Shown here: piece after piece, positions 9,801 through 25,989 of the stretch
Numbering within the stretch: position 1 is the first letter of the stretch
Layout: each line of letters begins with the position of its first letter
Source: an uncultured archaeon
GTDB lineage: Archaea > Asgardarchaeota > Thorarchaeia > Thorarchaeales > CAZPUN01
Assembly: GCA_964589775.1 (NCBI GenBank)
Contig: CAZPUN010000021.1
Coordinates: 1 to 32,000 of the forward strand
Length of the DNA stretch: 32,000 nucleotides
Direction of reading: 5' to 3'
The notes under the pieces: generated by a model
Told to the model about the DNA's origin: nothing
What the model saw: only the letters and a program-made list of their open reading frames with translations
Databases searched by the model: none
Program-made: the position numbers and the translations under genes

Positions 9801-10997
9801 TCACTCGGATTCCATAAGGCGCTTTTCCTCATCTGATTCAGTAATGCGCTTTTCCTCATCTGATTCAATAAGATCCGTTGTTTTTGCTTCTGAAACTTCA
9901 GATTCGGTTTCTTCAGGCAAATCACCAATATCTGTATCATTGCCACCTATTATTGGACGTGAAGATTTCGTATCTTCTTTGGGTTCTTCTTTGGGTTCTT
10001 CTTTGGGTTCTTCTTTGGGTTCTTCTTTGGGTTCTTCTTTGGGTTCTTCTTTGGGTTCTTTTTCGATTGTTTCGGATTCTGGTTTGCTTTCTTCTAATGG
10101 TTTTGCACCTGGTACTTCAAATTTCAATAATTCGGATAATGGTTTGTCTGGTAATTTCATACCCACGTATTCTGCTGCAGCTTTCAAGAGTAATCTCAGC
10201 ATTTCATCTCGACGCTTTTTATCAATAGCGACCATTGGATATGTTTGTACTCCTAGAATTCTCTGGATGACTTCGGGTTTCATAGCTCCCGGTTTATCTT
10301 GTTTATTTGCAATAACAAACAGTGGCACTTTTGGAGCATCTCTTCGAATCAGTTTCAAGATTTCTTTAGTAACTATAATATTTCTTAAGGTTGAATCAGT
10401 CACAAGGAATATTATATCTGAACCCTGGAAGTAAAACTTCCATAAGCTTCTGAAACGTTCCTGTCCTGCAAAGTCCCACAAAACAAGTTCATAAGTTCCG
10501 AATCTAATTCCTTCTACTCTTTCTACATTAAGTGCAATTGTTGGGACATACTGTTGTGGGGGTGTATCACCAAGCAATAGATGCAATAGGGTTGTTTTAC
10601 CAACACCACCTTCTCCAACTAATGAGACTTTAAGTTTTGTGATGACAACTTCTTTCATTAAAGTTGCGAAGTTTTCAATAACATAGTCTATGTCGTAATC
10701 TTCAAGAGTTTCTTCTAAAATTTCAATTGCCTGCGTTAATTTATCAGAGGTAGCGTGTTCATCTTCAGTGTGGTCTGTACAGAAAACAAGAATTAGATTA
10801 TCCAACATTCTGAAGAAGAATTTTGACTCTCCAACATGAAGGGGCAGATCTCCAAGTTCATCTATTGCATCTGCTAATTCGCTTAGTGTAAGCATGAATT
10901 CTTGGATTTCATCGTCCGTAACTTCAATGTCCCAGAATTTATTTCGTGCTAATACTTTTCCTGTGTCTTTGTCTATTAGTAATAGATTATGAATCAT
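9801..10997 (-). CDS. Longin-like domain + Ras-superfamily (Arf/Rab-like) small GTPase + acidic repeat tail
   Basis: G1 GEGGVGKT, G2 PTI, G3 WDFAGQ, G4 NKQD. N-terminal MIHNLLLIDKDTGKVLA... has a longin-like beta/alpha pattern. GGGGTGG RBS precedes ATG 10997. Confidence 0.9.
   Translation of the reverse strand: MIHNLLLIDKDTGKVLARNKFWDIEVTDDEIQEFMLTLSELADAIDELGDLPLHVGESKFFFRMLDNLILVFCTDHTEDEHATSDKLTQAIEILEETLEDYDIDYVIENFATLMKEVVITKLKVSLVGEGGVGKTTLLHLLLGDTPPQQYVPTIALNVERVEGIRFGTYELVLWDFAGQERFRSLWKFYFQGSDIIFLVTDSTLRNIIVTKEILKLIRRDAPKVPLFVIANKQDKPGAMKPEVIQRILGVQTYPMVAIDKKRRDEMLRLLLKAAAEYVGMKLPDKPLSELLKFEVPGAKPLEESKPESETIEKEPKEEPKEEPKEEPKEEPKEEPKEEPKEDTKSSRPIIGGNDTDIGDLPEETESEVSEAKTTDLIESDEEKRITESDEEKRLMESE
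9819..9867. repeat. 22-bp direct repeat with 27-bp period (ESDEEKR x2)
   Basis: GCGCTTTTCCTCATCTGATTCA at 9819-9840 and 9846-9867. Confidence 0.9.
9973..10056. repeat. Perfect 12-bp coding tandem repeat x7 (TCTTCTTTGGGT; EPKE)
   Basis: Seven identical units counted directly from 9973 to 10056. Confidence 0.95.
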
Positions 10998-11100
10998 TAA
11001 GGCCACCCCAATATAAAATACTGAATTTAAATTAATGCAAACTCTTATTTATATTATCTTATATTTTGCCATACTAATAAGGATTTTTCTAAATTTTTTA

Positions 11101-12219: not shown

Positions 12220-12295
12220 AAGTTATCACCGAATAGATTTTTCATGCAATATTTATAAGCACTTTTGATTTATTCACTATTGGAGTTGAGTGTTT

Positions 12296-13045
12296 ATGGG
12301 ACTGCTCAGCAGAATTCGAAATAGATGGAAGAGGCGAAAGGAAACTATTGTTGATTATAAAATCGAGAAGGACATCCGAGCTCATCCCCCAATTCCCCAA
12401 GTAAGTGTTCCAGTCCCTTCCGTACCCGAAAAGGAACCTAAGAAAGAAGTCGTAAGATTAGAAAAAATTGCAAAAGAATTAAAACGCGATTCACGTGGGC
12501 GGGTTCATCTCAAGATAGTTTTCTATGGTCCAAGCTTGAGTGGCAAAACAACAATGTTGCGATATATCTTTACAAAGCTTGAAGAAAGTTCAAAGGGTCA
12601 ATTGACAGAAACCTCGGACCCAACAGGAAGAACACTATTCTTTGATTTTGTACCGATTACTGTCACTCCTCATGTTGTTTTTGACATTTTCACAGTAGCC
12701 GGACAAAGAAGACATTATCGTCAGCGTAAAACCGTGTTGCGCGATGCGGATGGAATTATTTTCGTCGCTGATAGTTCGCCAGATGCTATAAATGAAAATA
12801 AGGATTCATTTGAGGAATTAAAGCGTTATTTGGGTCCTGAATTACTCCATTCAATACCTATCATAATAGCAATAAATAAGCGAGATCTTCCCAATGCTAT
12901 GCCCGTTGATGAAATCGTAAAGTTTCTTGGTATCGAAGAATATCCGATATTTGAAACCATAGCTATCACTGGTGAAAACTTACTAAAAGTATTCCGAACG
13001 ATCTTAAAGGAGACCATTTCATTTAGAATTAAGGGGCCTCTTTGA
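12296..13045 (+). CDS. MglA-like small GTPase with N-terminal extension
   Basis: KIVFYGPSLSGKTT, RTLFFDF, FTVAGQ, DGIIFVADS and NKRDLP are MglA-family signatures. Confidence 0.9.
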   Translation: MGLLSRIRNRWKRRKETIVDYKIEKDIRAHPPIPQVSVPVPSVPEKEPKKEVVRLEKIAKELKRDSRGRVHLKIVFYGPSLSGKTTMLRYIFTKLEESSKGQLTETSDPTGRTLFFDFVPITVTPHVVFDIFTVAGQRRHYRQRKTVLRDADGIIFVADSSPDAINENKDSFEELKRYLGPELLHSIPIIIAINKRDLPNAMPVDEIVKFLGIEEYPIFETIAITGENLLKVFRTILKETISFRIKGPL

Positions 13046-15158: not shown

Positions 15159-15410
15159 ATTTGTTCACCAAATAGGTCCTCTTTGAATATTATTTAACCT
15201 AATGTTTATATAAAATATTGCATACTCTTTCTACACTTTAAAACATCTATATTAATTATTATATTTACGTAAGGCATATATTTTATATTAGTTAAAACAT
15301 TTAAATAAGTAAAAATCTATATGTGAATCATTGAAAATTAAGAATATCCACATAAAATAAAATGGGACTAAATCGTATGTACCCTTTATATGCACCTGAG
15401 GGGATTTAAT
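15159..15410. promoter_or_regulatory. AT-rich divergent promoter region
   Basis: Very AT-rich gap between divergent genes with TATA-like elements (e.g. TTTATATAAA at 15205-15214). Exact start sites are not assignable. Confidence 0.45.
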
Positions 15411-16262
15411 TTGATTAGAAATGTCTATATAATCAGTGATGAAGGAAGTATAATCTTCAGCAAAAACTATTCGGACAATAATAACAATACAGACTTGATT
15501 GAATTTCTAATTAGTCTTACCGAATTTGTGAATAATATGAATTTCCCGGAAAAAACTGAAACTATGGGTATGCATTCACTTCAGCTTTATTATTTACGCA
15601 AAGGTAATGTAATGTTTTATTTTGTTGCTGATAAGAGTGATGACCCCGAACAAGTAAAAGAAAAAATTGAGCAATTGTCCGATATATTTATGGAGAAATG
15701 GGGTAATATTGTAAAGAACTGGTCTGGAGATCCCAATGAGTTTGAGGGCATTGAAGAAGTTGTTGATAAAATTGCCGTAACTATGGTAAAGATTGCTCTA
15801 CTTGGATTTAGTTCAGTAGGAAAAACAACAACATTACGGTTATTACGCGGAGAGCCCGTTGCACTAACACACAAGGCAACAATCGGTGTAAATATCAAGT
15901 CTCTTTCCTCAGATATTGGAAATGCGAACTTGGTTATCTGGGACCTAGCTGGGCAGTCTAGGTTCTCAATTCTATGGAATAAGATGGTAAAGAATGCTCA
16001 AGTTGTTATTATAGTAACTGATAGTACGCTGGAAAATGTGTTGCGAAGTCGAAAGCTCGTGCAGATGGTTCAGAAAGAAGCTCCAACTGCGAAAATTATT
16101 GGAATTGCGAATAAGCAAGACTTACCTACTGCTCTAACTCCAGAGCGTGTAGGCCAAATTTTAGGTGTTCCAACCTACGAGCTAATTGCCATAGATCCAT
16201 CATATCGCGATAGGTTGCTTGCAATTCTTACCAAAGCAATTCTTGAAGTATCATCAACATAA
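15411..16262 (+). CDS. Longin-like domain + Ras-superfamily small GTPase (paralog of 9801-10997)
   Basis: G1 GFSSVGKT, G2 ATI, G3 WDLAGQ, G4 NKQD. N-terminal IRNVYIISDEGSIIFSKNY is longin-like. GAGGGG RBS suggests TTG 15411 (ORF track starts at 15390). Confidence 0.9.
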   Translation: MIRNVYIISDEGSIIFSKNYSDNNNNTDLIEFLISLTEFVNNMNFPEKTETMGMHSLQLYYLRKGNVMFYFVADKSDDPEQVKEKIEQLSDIFMEKWGNIVKNWSGDPNEFEGIEEVVDKIAVTMVKIALLGFSSVGKTTTLRLLRGEPVALTHKATIGVNIKSLSSDIGNANLVIWDLAGQSRFSILWNKMVKNAQVVIIVTDSTLENVLRSRKLVQMVQKEAPTAKIIGIANKQDLPTALTPERVGQILGVPTYELIAIDPSYRDRLLAILTKAILEVSST

Positions 16263-16341
16263 TGGTTCATTAGCAAAAATGTAAAAAGGTTTATTTATCT
16301 AATAAATGATAGTTAATAATAATGAGGGTCTGGTGATAAGT

Positions 16342-17106
16342 TTGAGCTTTGAACAACTAACCCAAGAAATCGCAATGATAAATGAAAAGTTAAAGAAAAT
16401 CGCTGGTTTTATGACCACTGTCTCAGAGACAAGAAGACTCATTGAAAACTTGCATGAGAATTTCAAAACAATGAAAAATCAAATCAATTCCACATTAGAG
16501 GAAATTGAGGATCAAATTGAAAAAATCAAGCAGAATATGGAAGAAATGCAGACGATCGCTCCTCAAACATCGTCATCTGCATCATCACAATCTGCTTCTG
16601 CACCTGTAAGTACTCCCACTCCTGCACCTGAGCCTGAACCAAAACCTCAGCCCGTAAAGGTTCCGGAACCAACACCTGAACCCGTACGTGCTCCAGAACC
16701 CGAACCCGTGGCGACTCCTGAACCCGTTAGTGTACCTGAGCCTGAGCCTATTGCAAGCCCATTTGGCGGTGCAGATATTGAGAGCGGTATGGGTGATGCT
16801 GAGGCATTATTAGAATCGGCACTTGCATCTGGCGAAAAAACTATGGATGCCTTATTTGGTGGTTCAAGTGCATCCGAATCTGCTGAGGCAAAGATTGAGA
16901 TTCCAACTACTTCTACTGAAAAAGAACCCGCTGAATTGCTTGAAGAGCTAAAACAAGAAAAAGAAAACATAAAGACTGCTCTTACAGATTTGCGATTTGA
17001 TTACATGCGTGGCTTAATTGATGAAGAAAATTACAAAGTTAAAGAATCAGAGCTCGAAGGAAAACTTGCATCAATTGAGAAACGCATACAAGAACTTACT
17101 GGATAA
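16342..17106 (+). CDS. Coiled-coil / Pro-Glu-rich linker / C-terminal helical-hairpin protein
   Basis: N-terminal heptads, PEPEP repeats, C-terminal LRFDYMRGLIDEENY hairpin. GGTGAT RBS suggests TTG 16342. Confidence 0.75.
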   Translation: MSFEQLTQEIAMINEKLKKIAGFMTTVSETRRLIENLHENFKTMKNQINSTLEEIEDQIEKIKQNMEEMQTIAPQTSSSASSQSASAPVSTPTPAPEPEPKPQPVKVPEPTPEPVRAPEPEPVATPEPVSVPEPEPIASPFGGADIESGMGDAEALLESALASGEKTMDALFGGSSASESAEAKIEIPTTSTEKEPAELLEELKQEKENIKTALTDLRFDYMRGLIDEENYKVKESELEGKLASIEKRIQELTG

Positions 17107-17171: not shown

Positions 17172-17711
17172 TTACTCGTTTTCTTCTGTTTTTTCAGTTT
17201 CTGATTTCTTGGACTTACGTGTTCTTTTCTTCTTTGTTTTTTCAGATTTTTCTGTGCTTTTTTCTTCTTTCTTTGTAGATTTCTTGGTGCTTTTCTTGGT
17301 ACTTTTGGTGCTTTTCTTAGTTTTCTTTTCTTCTTTCTTTGTAGATTTCTTGGTGCTTTTCTTGCTTTCCTTTGGTTTAATTCCTGTTGGTTTTATTGCC
17401 TCTTCTTCTTTTCTCAGAAGTTCAATTCTTTCTGAAGCATATTCTGGAGCCATATTTGGTTTTGTATATGCTTTGATCAGATTAGAAGAAACAATTGGAA
17501 CAAGTTTTCCTTCACGCTCTAATTGTCTGATTATTTCTTTTACGACACTTACTCTAACATTAAAGCGGGTCGCAATATCTGCTAGCGTGACTATTTTGGC
17601 CTTTTCTAAATATTTGTTAATTTCTTCTCTTGTTTCGGGCTCAACAATTGCGTCTCTAATTATTTTTTCGCGGGCTCTCTGTGTTGCGCCCCACTTCTTT
17701 TTGGCACCCAT
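17172..17711 (-). CDS. rps25e: Ribosomal protein eS25 (S25e) with long Lys/Ser/Thr-rich C-terminal extension
   Basis: KKKW...KIVT..IA.RF.VRVSV.K..IRQLE.EG.L..I....KAYT matches the eS25 winged-helix pattern. GGTGAT RBS precedes ATG 17711. Confidence 0.85.
   Translation of the reverse strand: MGAKKKWGATQRAREKIIRDAIVEPETREEINKYLEKAKIVTLADIATRFNVRVSVVKEIIRQLEREGKLVPIVSSNLIKAYTKPNMAPEYASERIELLRKEEEAIKPTGIKPKESKKSTKKSTKKEEKKTKKSTKSTKKSTKKSTKKEEKSTEKSEKTKKKRTRKSKKSETEKTEENE
17260..17364. repeat. 39-bp perfect direct repeat in the eS25 tail
   Basis: TTTTCTTCTTTCTTTGTAGATTTCTTGGTGCTTTTCTTG at 17260-17298 and 17326-17364. Confidence 0.85.
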
Positions 17712-17843
17712 TGTAATCACCTATTAAACAAGTCTAAACTTATGATTGTTCTTAAAAAACTTTCTGAGTAGTCAGATTTTTTGAGTACTCATAACAATCT
17801 TCAAATTTGATAGTGTATACATTAATAATAAGAGGGATAGTCC

Positions 17844-18548
17844 TTGATTATACGAAGTGATCCACCCGATATGAGTCTCTTAGTTGAGCGATTAATAAAA
17901 TATGCATATCCTGAATTGCGCACTCGAGATTTTATTATCTTATGGCGAAATATAAATGCAATTGCAGATATCACATGGGCGAAATGGGGTGGCGAAGTTC
18001 GAATAAGATTACATCCTATAGTGAAATCTTTTAACGACCCAATGTTAATTGGAACATTTGCACATGAACTAAGCCATGTAGCTCTAAAAGAAAATAACTC
18101 CGATGAATGGGAAACCGACTTTGATGTTGTAAAGCGTGGTCTAGGTCCATACCTTGCAATTGAGCGCGCATCTACTGGAATTTATTATGATCAACCTGCG
18201 CGTGGTAAATCTAAACCATATATGGGATTCTACACTATAATGGGATTACTGTCTGAAGATAGTAAGAAAAATACAGAACGCCTTGCAAAATTAATAAACC
18301 TTGATATTGCTCGTGAATTACCTCTCATTAGTACCAAGTCGATGCCAATGTCACACGATACTCTTTATCAAAAATTTGATAATGAATACGTTCTATCAAT
18401 AGATGGGGAAGAAATCTTACTTGATGCGGAGTATGATGAAAATAGCGACATAAATATTGAGATCCGTAATGGTGAGATTGTTGTATTCATTGATGGGAAG
18501 CCTGCAAAGATAAAGAAAATCAATCACTCTTCTTTGCAAAACATCTGA
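17844..18548 (+). CDS. Putative zincin-like metallopeptidase (HExxH)
   Basis: FAHELSHV followed by a candidate third ligand in EWETD; no signal peptide. The start could be ATG 17871. Confidence 0.65.
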   Translation: MIIRSDPPDMSLLVERLIKYAYPELRTRDFIILWRNINAIADITWAKWGGEVRIRLHPIVKSFNDPMLIGTFAHELSHVALKENNSDEWETDFDVVKRGLGPYLAIERASTGIYYDQPARGKSKPYMGFYTIMGLLSEDSKKNTERLAKLINLDIARELPLISTKSMPMSHDTLYQKFDNEYVLSIDGEEILLDAEYDENSDINIEIRNGEIVVFIDGKPAKIKKINHSSLQNI

Positions 18549-19290
18549 TAAATTTGTTAACGGATGCTTTGTATCCTTCATTAGAAATAGCTGAAATTTC
18601 AATATTTATTTTTGTACTAGTTTTTGTGTCTGGCAGCTTTAATGGAAAGACAAGTTCTTCAGTATCAAATGCCATAAGATCTAAGTTTCTTTCTATGAAC
18701 AGTAATATCTTATCAGATGAACTTCTCACTGTAAATTTAATTAAAACTGATAATGGATAACTCGAATAATTCATAATTTTTACAGGAATATTCAATAACG
18801 TCCCTGAATATGTAATTGAAGGTATATTCTCAATAAGTAATTTTAAGGGGCTCCTGGTTCTTTCAATTGATGTTTGAGCCATACTCAATAGTGATTTTGT
18901 TTCTTCTGCAATTTGGTTATCGCCATAAGATTCTGAGATAATACATGCATTTGAACAATATATTGAGCCATTATGTATAACCCAACAGGAGCTACATACA
19001 ATTTTACCACATATTTTACAACTTCCAATTAATTGTGGGGGCTCAAATTTTGTACTTGTGTATTTCTTGGCATGAGCTTTGCAGAATCCTCTACCGCAAA
19101 CTGAGCATTTTATCTCAGCAGGTGCTCCACAAATTTTGCAGACGTCTTGGGACTCTTTCTCGCCGGGTTCTGCGTGTTCTATCTTATAGTAGATTGAGTC
19201 TGGGCATTTTGGATTTATACAAGGTCCCACACCCTTATAGGCGCCACATGTCGGGCAAAACGGTTCAAGCATTTCTTTTCGTTTGGTCAT
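18520..19290 (-). CDS. Multi-zinc-finger (B-box/AN1-like) protein with C-terminal Ig-like domain
   Basis: CPTC..CINPKC; CKIC-x7-CSVC-x4-CKAH; CKIC..CSSC..YCSNAC; then a beta-rich segment 'SGTLLNIPVKIMN...'. Confidence 0.75.
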   Translation of the reverse strand: MTKRKEMLEPFCPTCGAYKGVGPCINPKCPDSIYYKIEHAEPGEKESQDVCKICGAPAEIKCSVCGRGFCKAHAKKYTSTKFEPPQLIGSCKICGKIVCSSCWVIHNGSIYCSNACIISESYGDNQIAEETKSLLSMAQTSIERTRSPLKLLIENIPSITYSGTLLNIPVKIMNYSSYPLSVLIKFTVRSSSDKILLFIERNLDLMAFDTEELVFPLKLPDTKTSTKINIEISAISNEGYKASVNKFIRCFAKKSD

Positions 19291-19460
19291 CCATCATCAT
19301 AATTATATATATATTCAAAAATATATAGTCCTTTTCAAAAGGGATTTTATTACCCTAGCTATACATTAAAATAGATTTAGAGCAATATAAGAATTATAAG
19401 TAATGTCTTCTATATAGATTATTGGGAGTATGTCATTAAAATTAAGAGAGGCCTAATAAA

Positions 19461-21878
19461 TTGTCCAAAGAGTTCCTTATTCCTCCAATCGCAACAGAAA
19501 AGGTTGCTATTTCGGGTTCTGAACCAATTGAACAATCTCTTCCAGATGATATCATAATCGCTGCTGCTTTATATGATGCATGGAATACGAAGGATGGAGA
19601 GCCCGTATTTTTAATTGAAGCTTTTTTGAAGATATTAGTTGCATCATCTCCTGAAGAAGAAAAAAGTATATTAATTGAAAATTTATCGTTGATCACGTCT
19701 CCAATATCCATTTATCAAATTGAGAATATAGAAAATATAATTGAAAAGATACGTGATGTTAAGAGAATTGAAGATTTGATGGAACTTATTAAAGATATTG
19801 AAAAACAACTGGGTAAGAATAAGAAGCAAAATATAACGATTCCCGGTTTACTTGCAGGGAAATTTTTGAAAGAGATCGGTCAATATATATCAATTTCTCG
19901 GCCTCAGAAACTTAAGGAATATTATACAGTTTTTCCAGACTTTGGTGGTATTAATGTTCATGAGACCGCACGACTTGTTCGTGAATCTTATGATAAATCT
20001 ATGAAGGCATTAAAAGCATATCGACTTGCATTAGAAGCTCTTGATATTAAACCAAAAGAATTGTTAGAACCTGAACGTAAGCGTATCAGTCGGGATATTG
20101 AGCGATTAAGAGTTCGTATTGAACAGTTACAAAAACGTATTAATGAACTGAATTACAATTTGAATAAAGGCTTAAAAATGCGAGAGGAAATGCTACGAGC
20201 ACGTCTGGAACAAAAGATAGAAGCGTTTGATTTTTCAAAATTAGAAATTAAACGAATGAAAATGGAACTTGAAGATGAAATTGAATCTCTGCGTAAAGAG
20301 TATGAAGATGAATTAGAAAAAAAGAATCGTGCAATAGCGAAGGACAAGGAACGATTAGAAAAACTCGAGAAAATACAAAAGGATTTGGATAAATTTTCAA
20401 AGAAAGAACTTGATAAAATCAAGAAAAAGATTGAAAATGTAATTTCTGAAATTTCACATTATATCGATAAACTCGAAGACGAAGTTATGGTAAATGCAGG
20501 TAGTCTCAGTAATGGTAAAGATACATATGTTTTAATACCATTTTTGATTTTTGGATTGCAGAAAGGCAGTAAGAAAAAAATAAAGTTGATTGGGCCATCG
20601 CAATTAGTAAAAGAGAAATCCAAGGATCATACGCTATTAGAACCGAGAAATGAATCTCTTCAACATTTACAAAATATGATTGAAGAGCGAATTGAGATTG
20701 ATACGTCATTACGAAGTTTTATCTATGATGAAGCTGATTTACGAAATGCATTTGCATTGGAAGAACCGCGTAAATTTATTTTGCGTGGTTTAATTAAACT
20801 TGTGTCTGATGGTTTTGTCAAACGTAATGACATCAAACGAATTGTTTCAAAAATTGAATCTTTCGAATTAATAGAAAGTCCAGAAATAATTGAAATAACT
20901 GATACAACGGACTTGGGTGAAGCGATCTCTCCTGAAGTTACAATTGAAGACGGCGGGAAAGGTTATGGCTCAGTACGAATTTTTGTTACAGATTCTGAGG
21001 GCAAGCGAATTCCTGAAGCCGTTTTAACATTAAATCGCAAAGAATATACTGCAGACAAGCGTGGTATAATCAACCTTTCATTAAAATCTGGTAAAAAGCG
21101 CGGTATTATTAAAGCTGAAGGATTTTACGATAAGAAAATTGTATTTCCTGTTAAAAATGATGCTTCAATATCTTTGCAAGTTAAACTTGATCCTATTCCT
21201 CCTGAAGAAATGTTGGCAAAACGAATCGATGAAATTACAAAGAAAGCTGAACGTACTGAAAAATTGTGGGAGAAATTACAGAAAGCCTTTGAAAAACATG
21301 GTGATGCAATTCTTCGTAATCCAAAATATCTCAGTGTTCTTGAAGAAATGCTTTCGGAAATGGGCATATCCCCAGAAGCATGGATTGCTGAAGCGAGTAA
21401 AACTCCAGACATGGTCTCGCGTTTATTCAAGAAAGGTCCATATTATGAAGGTCTTAGACGCGATATAATTTCTCTAATTGACACGTCCAAAGAATCCGGT
21501 GGAATTCTTGCATTATCTGAAGTCATTATGATATTGTCTAAAAAAGGTTGGAAAATATCTCCCGATGAAATTATAAAAACTATTGAAGATCTATCTAAGC
21601 AAGGATTAATTGGAGGAATTTCTGTACTGGATAATGGAATTAAAGTTGTACATTTCGTTCCCGTAGAAATGACGAAAGATCCACAGACAGTCATGTCTGT
21701 TGCTGCTAAACATAAAGGTAAAATTACACTTGAAACAGTAATTCTAGAACTTGGTTGGACTGAAGAGCGCGCAGAACGTGCATTGGAAAGCCTAGTTAAT
21801 GCCGGTATTGCAAAGGTTCAGAAAACCTATTCTCGAAGTTATATTTATTGGTTCCCAAGCTTAATGGAGAAGAAATAA
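19461..21878 (+). CDS. Large coiled-coil + beta-sandwich + ESCRT-II Vps22/SNF8 (EAP30)-like fusion protein
   Basis: The C-terminal ~220 aa (KHGDAILRNPKY...EMGISP...YYEGL...GGILALSE...ISPDEIIKTI...VPVEMTKD...LGWTEERAERALESLVNAG...YWFPSL) align motif by motif with eukaryotic SNF8/Vps22 as recalled. Confidence 0.88.
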   Translation: MSKEFLIPPIATEKVAISGSEPIEQSLPDDIIIAAALYDAWNTKDGEPVFLIEAFLKILVASSPEEEKSILIENLSLITSPISIYQIENIENIIEKIRDVKRIEDLMELIKDIEKQLGKNKKQNITIPGLLAGKFLKEIGQYISISRPQKLKEYYTVFPDFGGINVHETARLVRESYDKSMKALKAYRLALEALDIKPKELLEPERKRISRDIERLRVRIEQLQKRINELNYNLNKGLKMREEMLRARLEQKIEAFDFSKLEIKRMKMELEDEIESLRKEYEDELEKKNRAIAKDKERLEKLEKIQKDLDKFSKKELDKIKKKIENVISEISHYIDKLEDEVMVNAGSLSNGKDTYVLIPFLIFGLQKGSKKKIKLIGPSQLVKEKSKDHTLLEPRNESLQHLQNMIEERIEIDTSLRSFIYDEADLRNAFALEEPRKFILRGLIKLVSDGFVKRNDIKRIVSKIESFELIESPEIIEITDTTDLGEAISPEVTIEDGGKGYGSVRIFVTDSEGKRIPEAVLTLNRKEYTADKRGIINLSLKSGKKRGIIKAEGFYDKKIVFPVKNDASISLQVKLDPIPPEEMLAKRIDEITKKAERTEKLWEKLQKAFEKHGDAILRNPKYLSVLEEMLSEMGISPEAWIAEASKTPDMVSRLFKKGPYYEGLRRDIISLIDTSKESGGILALSEVIMILSKKGWKISPDEIIKTIEDLSKQGLIGGISVLDNGIKVVHFVPVEMTKDPQTVMSVAAKHKGKITLETVILELGWTEERAERALESLVNAGIAKVQKTYSRSYIYWFPSLMEKK

Positions 21879-21880
21879 AA

Positions 21881-22555
21881 ATGTCTTCAATTGCAAAAAA
21901 GTTCGGAAAATTAGAAAAGCAACTTCAAAAATTAAACATTACATTAGATCGCCTGATTGAGGATGTAAAACAAGTACAGGAAGCAAGTTCGAAAATTGAT
22001 TATGCAACATCACTTAATTATTTGAAAAACCTTGGTGAAGTATTACTAACGGGTACATCGCCATTCTATATTATCATCCAGCAGTTTTCAACTAAAGAAT
22101 ATAAGAATGTTGTGAAAGTTTTCACCGATAGCGACATATTTAATGTGATTGCAATCAACAATCCTTCTGAAGACTATATCTCAAATCATAATATACTAAG
22201 TGTCATAATTGCCGATTCACAAAAATTCGGAGAATCTATAATTCCGACCATAATTAATTTGCGTTTTTCAGCATTTCCTTCCTTCTATGATGATACAACT
22301 GTATTCATAGGAAACCGATATCTTCATGATACAAAAGGAGTATTAGAAAAATTATTCACAAAATTAGAAAATAAAGGATTTACCGTCTTGTATGATGAAA
22401 AGGATTTTGGCGGCGGTCCTTTTGTTTATCAAGCGATCAACCAATTCGGTCCGGTTCCACGAGTTTCGATATTTGAAATAACGGTGTCTGAAAAATTAAT
22501 AAACATGGTTGATAAGCTTGAATCTATCTATAAGGTGTTTGTTACTGTAATGTAA
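21881..22555 (+). CDS. Coiled-coil + alpha/beta domain resembling a degenerate N-formylglutamate amidohydrolase fold
   Basis: ATG 2 bp after the upstream stop; VFIGNRY...LENKGFTV...FGGG...IFEITVSEKL pattern. The CDS is secure; the product is tentative. Confidence 0.55.
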   Translation: MSSIAKKFGKLEKQLQKLNITLDRLIEDVKQVQEASSKIDYATSLNYLKNLGEVLLTGTSPFYIIIQQFSTKEYKNVVKVFTDSDIFNVIAINNPSEDYISNHNILSVIIADSQKFGESIIPTIINLRFSAFPSFYDDTTVFIGNRYLHDTKGVLEKLFTKLENKGFTVLYDEKDFGGGPFVYQAINQFGPVPRVSIFEITVSEKLINMVDKLESIYKVFVTVM

Positions 22556-22569
22556 AGGGTGTATGCTAA

Positions 22570-25500
22570 TTGAAATTGACTCGCCTTCCATATACTCATG
22601 GTATTGAAGTAGAGCTTCAAGTGCTTAATGATGATGGAACCTGGATTAGTGGCGAGGCTATAGTGGATATTTTTAATGATATAATTACCCGCGCGAAAGA
22701 AATAATTGAAGAATCCGCAGCTAAATCTGAAGTTTCCGTTATACATGAACGTTTTTTGGGATTGAAAATTGTTGAGAAAGACCCTAAAAAAGGTACAAAA
22801 ATTGTTGTCAAATATAAGTTGAAAGATGGTCGTGTAAAAGAATTTGATATAATGTCCCGTGACCCCCATATTGCTACAGTAACATATATCTTAGAAGTGG
22901 TTACACCTCCGTGTGACTATCTGGAAGAACTTGCATGGTGGATTCACATTCTAGTTTCCTCGGCTGAAAAATCGCTTCCCGCAGAAAAAGGAGTTATTCT
23001 AGTCTCAACGGGTTTGAATCCTACAGTGGATTATTTTAAAGGATTATCATTTGGTGAGCATCACCATATTTTAGGCCCAGAAGTGCCAAGCGAGGAAAAA
23101 TTAGCTGTGTATAATTTACTTCGTAATTTCATACCCCATATTATTGCGCTAACGGTAAACTCCCCTATTGTGAACGGAAAACCAACTGATGAAATACGTG
23201 AGTTACCTGATGGTAGAATAAGAGCTCCCCGTTGTATTCGCAGTATTCGACTCCAAATGAATTGTGCTCAGCTCGGTCCATGTTCTGATCGCGAATACAT
23301 TCCATACATGATTAGAGCATCTCCTGATGAGTTTGCTCTTAATGTCAACAGAGACCCACCGCGTATGGTTGATATGTATCCATTTACGGATTATGGAACC
23401 ATAGAACTAAGATGTGTTGACACTCAGCTTAGTATTCCCCGGAGAATTGGAATAGCTGCTATAATCCAAGCAATAGCATTAAAAGCGTCTAAATTATATA
23501 AGGCAGGACGACAAATTCCAGATGTGGGTAAAAAGTCAATCGTTCAAAATCGTGAGCGTGCAGTTTCAGCTGGATTGTGGGGACGATTCGAAAAACCTGA
23601 AGGTTTAGAAAAAATTGATCCTGAATTTGCAGCGTACTATTCATACAAGATCGGTCCCGATGGTCGTCCTGATATTTCAAAAGTAAATCGATATCTTTCT
23701 GATGCTGTAGAAGGTCTAATTGCGTATATTAAGGAAGAATTAGATGAACTCGAATTAATTGATAATGAATTTATGCAACCTTTATTTGTATCTATATTTG
23801 GTAGCTCTACAATTGAGCCTCGTACTACCACAGCGGATTATCAACTTATTGAATATTATTCCACCGGAAATAATGTATCTGCATTATTAAGAAAGCTTGT
23901 GAATATAACCGAAGATTGCTCTACTAATTGGTTATATGATCCCTTATCTGGAACACCAGATTTACCCGGATGGCTCAAATGGTGGACCGAAATTAATGTG
24001 GATATAAAACTTCTTTCGCCCACAGTATTTAGTGGGAATGATGTTAATTTTGTTGTTGAAATAAAAAATGGGAGTACCATAACATTACCAAATGTTGTTA
24101 TATCAATCTCCGTATTAAATGGTGAAAAAGAACAGGTATTTGCCGATACAATTCCGATTGGAAATATACATGCTGGTGATGTTATTCCCGTAGAGCGAGT
24201 TTTTAGCACACTTGATGGTTCTTCGTCATACGTAATACTTGCTGTTGCAAAAATTGGTACTAGGGAAATAAAGTTTCAGAAGTCGTTAAACACATATCGT
24301 GTCAAATCTACTATTAATGTGTTGGTTGACCATATTATTCCTCAATCCAAGACGTCCATTCCTTTCAAAGCTAGCATCTGGACAAATTATCCTGAAGACC
24401 AAGAAATTTCAGCCGAAGTATTATGTGTAAGTTCCAATGGGGAAGTTCTTGCAAAAGGCCAGTACAATTTTATACTTCCTAAAGAAGAAAAGAAGGTATT
24501 CAATCAAGAAAACTTTGAAAATATTATTATATCTCCAGAAGATGCAATTGGTCTTAAAAGATGCCATTTGGAACTGATTGTGAAAAATAAGTCTGGGCAT
24601 GTTTTGACAAAATCAATATCTAATAAATTCTATATTAGTTTTAGAGGCCCACAATTTGAAGTATCCTATGATATGCCTTCAACTATTAGTAATCCCGACA
24701 TTGAAAAAGTATCTGTTTCCCTAAGAATTAATTCATCAAGCATGATTAATCCTCATGATGTTGAAGCTTCCGTATTTTATTCTGTTGGACACTCATCAAA
24801 AATTCTAATTGGTAATTACAAGATCTTTGAAATTCCTGAATCTATTTCTGTTGAAATTCCAATACCTAAATATGAGGATAATTTCGAAATTTATTTTCAT
24901 ACAACTATTAAGTATAAAGGACATAAAATTACAACTATAAAAAGCCCGCCTCTATTAATTTCGAAATCGCAAGCAGTTCAAATTGAAAATATATTTGCCC
25001 CTGAAACCGTTTTTAAAAATTCGAAATTTAATGTGGGTGTAAAATTAAGATTTCCTTCAGACAAAACCGAAACTGTCAATTTAATCCTTGGTATTAGAAC
25101 TCCTACCGGTGCTGATGTGGTTCTCTCACAAAATAAGATCGCAAATAGTGGGGAAATTTACGTACCATTAGGACCATTCACTCCCTGGGGCATATTATCT
25201 GATTATGATTATTTCATGCTTTATGTGGCATTAGAGCAAAAGAATAAAATAATTGATATCAAGCAAAAGAAGGTTGAAATCACACATCTTAAAGAAATGA
25301 ATATTGATGTTGTATTTGGGAAAGTTGAAACAAATGTAACTGTTGGCTCAGATTTATCATGCTTGATTTTATTGAAAAACACAACGGACCAAGTATCCAA
25401 TCTGGTAGTTCATTATAAGATCTACGAACTATCTGGAAAACAGATTAATAGTGATTCTCATAAAATCGTTCTTGAAGAATATGGTGAAAAATATCTTCCA

Positions 25501-25989
25501 CTAAATATACCCATCCCTGTTTTTATCAAGCCGGGTAAATACAATCTAAATATTTATGTTGAAACTGAAGGCGCAATCATTAGTTCCTATATGACTTCAT
25601 TTAATGTTCTTGATATGACTGGCGAAGCTGTAACCATAAAGTTTAGATTCGAAAGTCTTAGAGGTGAGCCATATTCTTCACTTCTTCCGTCAGGAAAATT
25701 GATACATATTTTTGTTGATGTCCTATCGCAAATATCGCTAAAAGGTCGTATTTCTTTAGACCTTCTTCTTAGATCTGGTCGTACAATAGTCGATACCCTT
25801 AGCATTGAACTAAAACCTATGAATGCAGGGGATCAAATAACTATTGGACCCTTAGATTGGACCGTGCCATATACGGAAGATACCACTACATATATGTTTG
25901 AACCCGTCTTGAGAGTAAATAATAATAGACTTTCGCCCCAACTCATAAATATTGAGAATAACCAAATTAGAGTATTTAGTGCAATATAA
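22570..25989 (+). CDS. GCS2/YbdK-family carboxylate-amine ligase fused to tandem Ig-like domains
   Basis: GIEVELQ, LEVVTPPC, STGLNP, FGEHHHI, IIALTVNSP, RSIR, YGTIELRCVDTQ in the first ~470 aa; the remaining ~670 aa are beta-rich CARDB/Ig-like repeats. Confidence 0.88.
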   Translation: MKLTRLPYTHGIEVELQVLNDDGTWISGEAIVDIFNDIITRAKEIIEESAAKSEVSVIHERFLGLKIVEKDPKKGTKIVVKYKLKDGRVKEFDIMSRDPHIATVTYILEVVTPPCDYLEELAWWIHILVSSAEKSLPAEKGVILVSTGLNPTVDYFKGLSFGEHHHILGPEVPSEEKLAVYNLLRNFIPHIIALTVNSPIVNGKPTDEIRELPDGRIRAPRCIRSIRLQMNCAQLGPCSDREYIPYMIRASPDEFALNVNRDPPRMVDMYPFTDYGTIELRCVDTQLSIPRRIGIAAIIQAIALKASKLYKAGRQIPDVGKKSIVQNRERAVSAGLWGRFEKPEGLEKIDPEFAAYYSYKIGPDGRPDISKVNRYLSDAVEGLIAYIKEELDELELIDNEFMQPLFVSIFGSSTIEPRTTTADYQLIEYYSTGNNVSALLRKLVNITEDCSTNWLYDPLSGTPDLPGWLKWWTEINVDIKLLSPTVFSGNDVNFVVEIKNGSTITLPNVVISISVLNGEKEQVFADTIPIGNIHAGDVIPVERVFSTLDGSSSYVILAVAKIGTREIKFQKSLNTYRVKSTINVLVDHIIPQSKTSIPFKASIWTNYPEDQEISAEVLCVSSNGEVLAKGQYNFILPKEEKKVFNQENFENIIISPEDAIGLKRCHLELIVKNKSGHVLTKSISNKFYISFRGPQFEVSYDMPSTISNPDIEKVSVSLRINSSSMINPHDVEASVFYSVGHSSKILIGNYKIFEIPESISVEIPIPKYEDNFEIYFHTTIKYKGHKITTIKSPPLLISKSQAVQIENIFAPETVFKNSKFNVGVKLRFPSDKTETVNLILGIRTPTGADVVLSQNKIANSGEIYVPLGPFTPWGILSDYDYFMLYVALEQKNKIIDIKQKKVEITHLKEMNIDVVFGKVETNVTVGSDLSCLILLKNTTDQVSNLVVHYKIYELSGKQINSDSHKIVLEEYGEKYLPLNIPIPVFIKPGKYNLNIYVETEGAIISSYMTSFNVLDMTGEAVTIKFRFESLRGEPYSSLLPSGKLIHIFVDVLSQISLKGRISLDLLLRSGRTIVDTLSIELKPMNAGDQITIGPLDWTVPYTEDTTTYMFEPVLRVNNNRLSPQLINIENNQIRVFSAI

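Follow-up and report, generated by a model that had tools for sequence, protein, structure and literature searches.

In a 32,000-nucleotide (nt) stretch of DNA from an uncultured archaeon of the order Thorarchaeales (contig CAZPUN010000021.1 of assembly GCA_964589775.1, positions 1 to 32,000; hereafter the window), we found that a single uninterrupted open reading frame (ORF) at 19461..21878 on the + strand encodes an 805-residue paralogue of Vps22, here called the long Vps22. The protein ends in a Vps22-type core, and this core is preceded by a large conserved N-terminal addition. Its paralogue identity, as a conserved second Vps22-type protein of the order, is well supported, and the long Vps22 is a real and conserved variant that is apparently undescribed. 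[quoted passage not shown] The frame runs from a TTG start to a TAA stop. A Shine-Dalgarno-like GAGAGG, read from the sequence, lies 9 nt 5′ of the start (19446..19451, +), and the start assignment agrees with the homologue P0005 (73% identity), because its N-terminus, MSKEFLIPP, falls at the same position in the family alignment.

The long Vps22 carries a complete Vps22 core

The C-terminal part of the protein was identified by family, profile and fold searches. The Pfam scan matched EAP30 (PF04157) to amino acids (aa) 603-784 with an E-value of 3.1e-19 and 70 bits, against a gathering cut-off of 26.8, and 23 of the 25 family members were matched as well. When the family profile was compared with PDB sequences, it aligned with residues 7-215 of human SNF8 (3cuq_A, E 2.7e-19) and with yeast Vps22 (1u5t_A, 4e-9). 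We also built a full-length AlphaFold2 model on the 25-sequence family alignment, with a mean predicted local distance difference test (pLDDT) score of 82.3, and a Foldseek search with this model placed Vps22 at the top ranks (3cuq_A 3.9e-8, 2zme_A 7.0e-8, 1u5t_A 1.1e-6). The Vps22 N-terminal helix and helical region (21201..21497, +; aa 581-679), to which the profile aligns from SNF8 residue 7, are modelled as helices at aa 581-618, 621-633, 638-647, 651-658 and 660-679. They are followed by the EAP30 core's tandem winged helices (21504..21851, +; aa 682-797), modelled at aa 682-731 and 740-797, and then by a YWFPSL motif at the end of the protein, in which F798 and P799 are invariant and W797 is near-invariant across the family alignment. 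The C-terminus is thus a tandem winged-helix core with Vps22-type N-terminal helices. An earlier note on this DNA, made from the letters and their translations, had read a full Vps22 at this place, and the EAP30 match, the modelled winged-helix pair and the alignment to SNF8 bear that out.

Vps36 chains ranked below those of Vps22 in the Foldseek search (2zme_B 2.5e-6, 3cuq_B 3.8e-5), and no Vps36 was present among the 60 best sequence matches of the family profile, all of which had E-values of 0.2 or better. In both sequence and fold the long Vps22 resembles Vps22 more closely than Vps36. Furthermore, the GLUE/PH domain (PF11605) that marks Vps36 was absent from Pfam scans of the long Vps22 and the 25 family members, and the N-terminus modelled by AlphaFold2 is the head/hairpin module described below, not a GLUE domain (a split PH). 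Earlier, the protein had been called a Vps36 analogue; this is acceptable as an analogy of working, but as a statement of family membership it does not hold, since a GLUE/PH domain is missing and the core resembles that of Vps22 more.

A head with a projecting hairpin and a beta-sandwich precede the core

In the AlphaFold2 model the parts follow each other in the order head, two long helices, return strands and four helices, linker, beta-sandwich, Vps22 helices and two winged helices. The first part of the alpha/beta head (19461..19940, +; aa 1-160) was modelled with pLDDT 75-95 and contains the conserved residues P8, P28 and G129; the second part (20523..20861, +), with pLDDT of about 90-95, consists of the return strands (aa 355-395) and the four helices (aa 398-467). 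Between them lies a predicted antiparallel coiled-coil hairpin (19956..20483, +), whose helices at aa 166-255 and 260-341 are linked via a four-residue turn. A second AlphaFold2 model, restricted to aa 1-475, reached a pLDDT of 90.2 and a predicted template modelling (pTM) score of 0.75. In the family alignment P8, P28, G129, P360 and L447 of the head and R219 of the hairpin are invariant, R215 and L223 of the hairpin are near-invariant, and gaps indicate that the hairpin is about 50-60 residues longer in the source genome than in most relatives. In the models, this module of about 475 aa consists of a globular alpha/beta head and a single-chain, antiparallel helical hairpin that projects from it for some 13 nm, as estimated from helices of about 90 residues. 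The coiled coil that the earlier note had placed at about 19990-20480 is therefore present as long helices, but instead of a simple tether these make a single-chain antiparallel hairpin inserted in a globular head, as judged from the two AlphaFold2 models and from matches of SMC/EmrA type.

Those matches came from Foldseek and VIA searches with the aa 1-475 model, which returned only two-helix hairpins (the SMC arm 5xg2, EmrA 4tko and LipC 5nen); because hairpin matches fill the lists, the fold of the head was barely probed by them. Pfam scans of the long Vps22 and the 25 family members assigned no family to the head, searching PDB sequences with profiles of the head and the middle domain gave no convincing match, and the ESM Atlas returned solely unnamed archaeal clusters for the N-terminal module. 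Two candidates were tried and rejected. A longin/roadblock fold for the head, to which the succession of strands and helices had pointed, failed at profile level, with an hhalign probability of 0.2 against the genome's own roadblock proteins (PF03259), and P0082 (465 aa), considered as a stand-alone form of the N-terminal module, is most likely a truncated family member.

A disordered linker (20889..20960, +; aa 477-500; pLDDT <50), variable in both length and sequence across the alignment, leads to a transthyretin-like beta-sandwich of CarboxypepD_reg type (20964..21188, +; aa 502-576), assigned from its fold and from Pfam matches in the family. A beta-sandwich had been claimed at about 20961-21200, and the model bears this out. 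In the long Vps22 itself the match to CarboxypepD_reg (PF13620) is weak and under the cut-off (aa 504-576, E 0.17, 12.7 bits); 19 of the 25 family members match this family, the best with 2.6e-10, and 4 of the 25 match PEGA. Foldseek aligned the sandwich over about 80 residues with the transthyretin-like domains of carboxypeptidases D, N and M and with SusC NTE (root-mean-square deviation 1.5-3.3 Å, E 1e-4 to 1e-3), and a profile search of the PDB matched 6hif_Y with an E-value of 1.6e-5. The results place aa 502-576 in the CarboxypepD_reg/transthyretin-like sandwich type. The fold is shared with carboxypeptidase D (1qmu/5aq0) and SusC NTE (9hfj); those proteins are extracellular or periplasmic, whereas in the long Vps22 the sandwich occurs once, inside an ESCRT-II-type protein, and appears to be cytoplasmic, acting as a spacer or in binding.

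The whole architecture is conserved in one Asgard order

The informative homologue search ran HMMER against the full set of 1.8 billion cluster representatives; word-indexed searches gave 2-3 proteins. The scan returned 321 matches, among them about 25 full-length relatives of 733-790 aa with roughly 22-32% identity; over all searches, full-length relatives range from 733 to 807 aa and from 22 to 73% identity, and 25 representatives align end to end. In the databases they are named 'hypothetical protein', 'carboxypeptidase regulatory-like domain-containing protein' or 'PEGA domain-containing protein', and the named relatives come from metagenome-assembled genomes (MAGs) of Thorarchaeota and Promethearchaeota, plus one 'Asgardarchaeia' MAG.

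The distribution was surveyed by a profile search of 400 Asgard genomes, in which f2 denotes a family of the same order as the source and f1 the source family. The whole profile (positions 1-775) was matched in about 75 of 86 f2 genomes, in G001 of family f3 and in the source genome (G000, family f1), which is 96.75% complete and carries the long Vps22 on contig C21. In every other Asgard family searched, positions ~540-775 only were matched, that is, the ordinary Vps22 of about 245 aa. Some high-quality f2 genomes are without the long Vps22, for example those of genus g16 (96-99% complete).

Its unusual length, taken alone, could point to an assembly chimera or to a fusion by a lost stop codon in a MAG, the first of which the earlier note had raised itself. 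We give this a vanishingly small chance. The same domain order, at 733-807 aa and with conserved residues in every domain, recurs in the 25 representatives and in about 75 independent f2 assemblies, and because the whole architecture is kept in dozens of independent assemblies a chimera is excluded.

Previous surveys have described one Vps22/Vps36-like gene in each Asgard genome, with Vps36 lacking (Hatano et al. 2022, PMC9192718), varied ESCRT-II paralogues including a steadiness-box form of Asgard Vps22 (Makarova et al. 2024, PMC10936438), and Vps22 domains combined with other domains (Eme et al. 2023). The form of about 800 aa is not described in PMC9192718 or PMC10936438, nor in their supplements as far as these are searchable. 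With eukaryotic Vps22/SNF8/EAP30 and the ~245-aa Asgard Vps22 it shares the N-terminal helices, the helical region, the two winged helices and the YW(F/L)P motif; it differs from them in its roughly 580 extra N-terminal residues, in lying outside the ESCRT cluster, and in being limited to a single Asgard order and at least one lineage besides.

The canonical short Vps22 is encoded elsewhere in the genome

The source genome has its canonical ESCRT locus on contig C64, where a steadiness-box Vps22 (SB-Vps22), Vps25 and Vps4 are encoded, Vps25 at L005:10901-11575. As this separate locus supplies a Vps22 of its own, the long Vps22 is a second Vps22-type subunit. SB-Vps22 (G000:C64, L005:10107-10904) has 265 aa, and its N-terminus matches VPS28/Vps23-core models. 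It aligns with the core of the long form at the winged helices only (model positions 77-225), and the ~245-aa Vps22 proteins of other Asgard families align over core model positions 3-224; in this order, the long Vps22 is thus the form in which the classical N-terminal helices of Vps22 are retained. The tandem winged-helix core is thus common to the long Vps22 and SB-Vps22 (asCOG cog.002769; PMC10936438), and both forms occur in the same genomes, but where the long form has the N-terminal Vps22 helices, a Vps28/Vps23-like hairpin is found in the short one. Directly beside the canonical Vps22/Vps25/Vps4 genes on C64 stand two ORFs without a Pfam family, one of 453 aa and the other of 239 aa (L005:7909-10001), and among the ORFs scanned at this locus there was no ESCRT-III (Snf7) match.

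Quick maximum-likelihood trees were built from Asgard sequences and are unrooted with respect to eukaryotic Vps22 and Vps36. In these trees the 21 long forms from the order made up one clade, with support of 95-99 in the Shimodaira–Hasegawa-like approximate likelihood ratio test (SH-aLRT), and all 25 long forms lay on the same side of one branch (support 78). The order's SB-Vps22 proteins formed a separate clade (SH-aLRT 100). A joint clade of long Vps22 and SB-Vps22 was not rejected by the approximately unbiased (AU) test (p = 0.447).

The presence of two different Vps22-type proteins in the carrier genomes raises the alternative that the long Vps22 is a true counterpart of Vps36, which would form a one-to-one asymmetric stalk with SB-Vps22 and have its N-terminal module in place of GLUE. 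The long form also keeps the N-terminal helical region that packs Vps22 against Vps36 in the eukaryotic structures (3cuq, 1u5t). We nevertheless consider such a counterpart improbable, since GLUE/PH and zinc-finger domains are missing, Vps36 is the worse match by fold (2.5e-6 versus 3.9e-8) and stays outside the top 60 sequence matches, and genera without the long form (g16) keep SB-Vps22. In addition, Thorarchaeota Vps22 interacts with itself in the yeast two-hybrid assay (PMC9192718), so that a partner is not required. Compared directly, eukaryotic Vps36 (GLUE/PH plus EAP30 core) and the long Vps22 are alike in that a Vps22-type core bears an N-terminal add-on that could target, and in that the long form would be the second, larger core subunit; the long form differs in having neither GLUE/PH nor NZF fingers, its add-on being an unrelated head/hairpin with a transthyretin-like sandwich.

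A proposed alternative ESCRT-II-type adaptor

Because a complete Vps22 core, a co-existing Vps25/Vps4 set and a large conserved add-on come together, we suggest that the long Vps22 probably acts as an alternative adaptor of ESCRT-II type. Its core would dock into ESCRT-II-type assemblies and bind Vps25 and, via Vps25, ESCRT-III/Vps4; the protein may act as a homodimer or be paired with SB-Vps22. The head/hairpin and the sandwich would supply recognition of a target or membrane site, and likely inputs would be the neighbouring Arf-like GTPase module and a GCS2-type amide-ligase set, which forms an operon with the gene here and is co-inherited in the order. In eukaryotes and in those Asgard lineages that use ubiquitin, the target is recognised by ubiquitin-binding ESCRT-I or by the Vps36 GLUE domain. 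An adaptor of alternative architecture had been proposed in the earlier note; the complete core, the separate Vps22/Vps25/Vps4 locus and the conserved N-terminal module speak for that proposal, and the missing linkage to an ESCRT locus speaks against it.

The genes for these putative inputs flank the long Vps22 in the window. Upstream is the gene of a small Arf-like GTPase that is extended at its N-terminus (15390-16262, +; Pfam Arf 8.7e-20); in a context survey of 14 related-genome loci of 20 kb, homologues with 52-59% identity to it were found 2-5 kb from the long Vps22 in 12 loci. After the GTPase, a coiled-coil, proline-rich protein is encoded (16306-17106, +) that has a Pro/Glu-rich linker of about 110 aa and a C-terminal motif, LTDLRFDYMRG, which as LTDLRFDYMRG.I.E..YK is invariant in 12 genomes. 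Its Pfam matches, of CdvA/GvpG type, are sub-threshold, and the C-terminus may be a steadiness-box or SHOCT-like hairpin. Downstream, the operon partners (21881..25989, +) are a 224-aa protein, whose ATG lies 2 nt past the stop of the long Vps22, as seen in the DNA letters themselves, and a GCS2-type ligase of 1139 aa that contains Ig-like repeats (Pfam GCS2). The ligase adjoins the long Vps22 only in G000 and G001, and no homologue of the 224-aa gene was detected next to the long Vps22 in the 14 related loci.

Several points weigh against the adaptor role. Canonical Asgard Vps22 is usually encoded with Vps25, ESCRT-III or Vps4 (PMC9192718, PMC10936438), and the long Vps22 is not; in the source it lies on C21 and the ESCRT locus on C64, and in G335 the two are about 370 kb apart. 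The AlphaFold2 models are of single chains and silent on binding to Vps25 or ESCRT-III, and as the fold of the head has no assignment, its targeting role is a guess. The possible steadiness box in the proline-rich protein comes from the sub-threshold CdvA-model match and was not confirmed, the PDB profile search being dominated by the Pro-rich linker. In f2 genomes the ligase is typically about 60 kb from the long Vps22, on the same contig. Their presence is nonetheless correlated, which speaks for the role: both genes are present in 32 of 40 f2 genomes that are at least 90% complete, neither in 5 and one only in 3. This co-loss is a lead, not a statistic, because the genomes are related and at most about five loss events are involved. 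Also in favour, ubiquitin (PF00240) was not found in three of three carrier genomes (G000, G312 and G001) and was found in three of three non-carrier controls from other Asgard families, a contrast of only three genomes against three; E2 was not found in G000, and the control genomes were equally silent for the E2 family.

The lack of genomic linkage to Vps25, Vps4 or ESCRT-III, together with linkage instead to the GTPase module and, in the source genome, to the ligase operon, would also fit an ESCRT-independent scaffold. Here the Vps22-like winged helices would be reused as a docking module alone, in a protein acting as effector or tether for the neighbouring Arf-like GTPase or as an amide ligase/hydrolase platform, working without Vps25/ESCRT-III, and EAP30 does occur in many other Asgard fusions (P0063, P0097, P0117). 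We hold this to be rather unlikely, given that the whole Vps22 unit is kept, with its N-terminal helices, its YWFP and an alignment to SNF8 at E 2.7e-19, which exceeds the needs of a generic winged-helix dock, and that the carrier genomes retain the full Vps25/Vps4 set.

The adaptor role could be taken one step further, to a recognition arm of a ubiquitin-independent ESCRT pathway, although we regard this extension as improbable. Its head/hairpin and sandwich would then read a mark or partner made by the co-inherited GCS2-type ligase/hydrolase set, or the activated Arf-like GTPase, and the core would hand the site to Vps25, ESCRT-III and Vps4. If true, this would be a second, independent way of coupling tagging or a GTPase signal to ESCRT membrane remodelling. 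A conserved second Vps22-type subunit with a large targeting-type module, in a lineage without detected ubiquitin, bears on the way in which ESCRT-II gained asymmetric subunits and cargo recognition before eukaryotes, and the long Vps22 makes these questions accessible through one specific protein and a defined set of partners.

Other EAP30 fusions and neighbouring genes

Three further Asgard fusions deserve description. P0063 (601 aa, from a Promethearchaeota MAG) combines a B-box zinc finger and a weak GLUE match (PF11605, E 1.8e-4) with an EAP30 core; its architecture is Vps36-like, whereas full-length Vps36 homologues have been reported absent in Asgard (PMC9192718). P0117 (969 aa) consists of Ig-like, CarboxypepD_reg and EAP30 domains, with the sandwich before the core as in the long Vps22, and P0097 (780 aa, from a Njordarchaeum-like cluster) has N-terminal helix-turn-helix domains followed by EAP30. 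Weak EAP30-like winged helices were also seen in two very long frames, at G389:C28:61015-61329 (L046, 1221 aa) and G335:C2:408856-409191 (L045, 693 aa); genus g16, of which G389 is a member, is without the long Vps22.

The window has a low GC content of about 0.30-0.41 and contains several Arf-family GTPases as well as ribosomal protein S25e, RtcB and the CCA-adding enzyme. The coiled-coil, proline-rich protein and S25e are found near the long Vps22 in 12 of the 14 surveyed loci. The S25e gene (17172-17720, -) encodes a C-terminal extension of about 95 aa (182 aa in all), and the corresponding frame in L028 has 306 aa. Directly upstream of the long Vps22 and divergent from it is the gene of a B-box-like zinc-finger protein (18520..19290, -), identified by a weak Pfam match to the ANCHR-like B-box (E 7e-4); a divergent homologue holds the same place in 8 of the 14 loci, and a 234-aa protein is encoded nearby in 8 of the 14.

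At L028:7129-8241 (-) we found a 370-aa protein without a Pfam family that is conserved, with homologues in 12 related loci. Its C-terminus resembles a winged helix, and its relatives in the source genome are on C20, C34 and C55, with none in the window. In f2 the gene overlaps that of the Arf-like GTPase by 4 nt, which suggests translational coupling. Within the window, three genes for GTPases of the Arf/Ras family (9801-11006, -; 12290-13045, +; and 15390-16262, +) lie within 6.5 kb, and two of the three proteins carry N-terminal extensions of about 120-130 aa.

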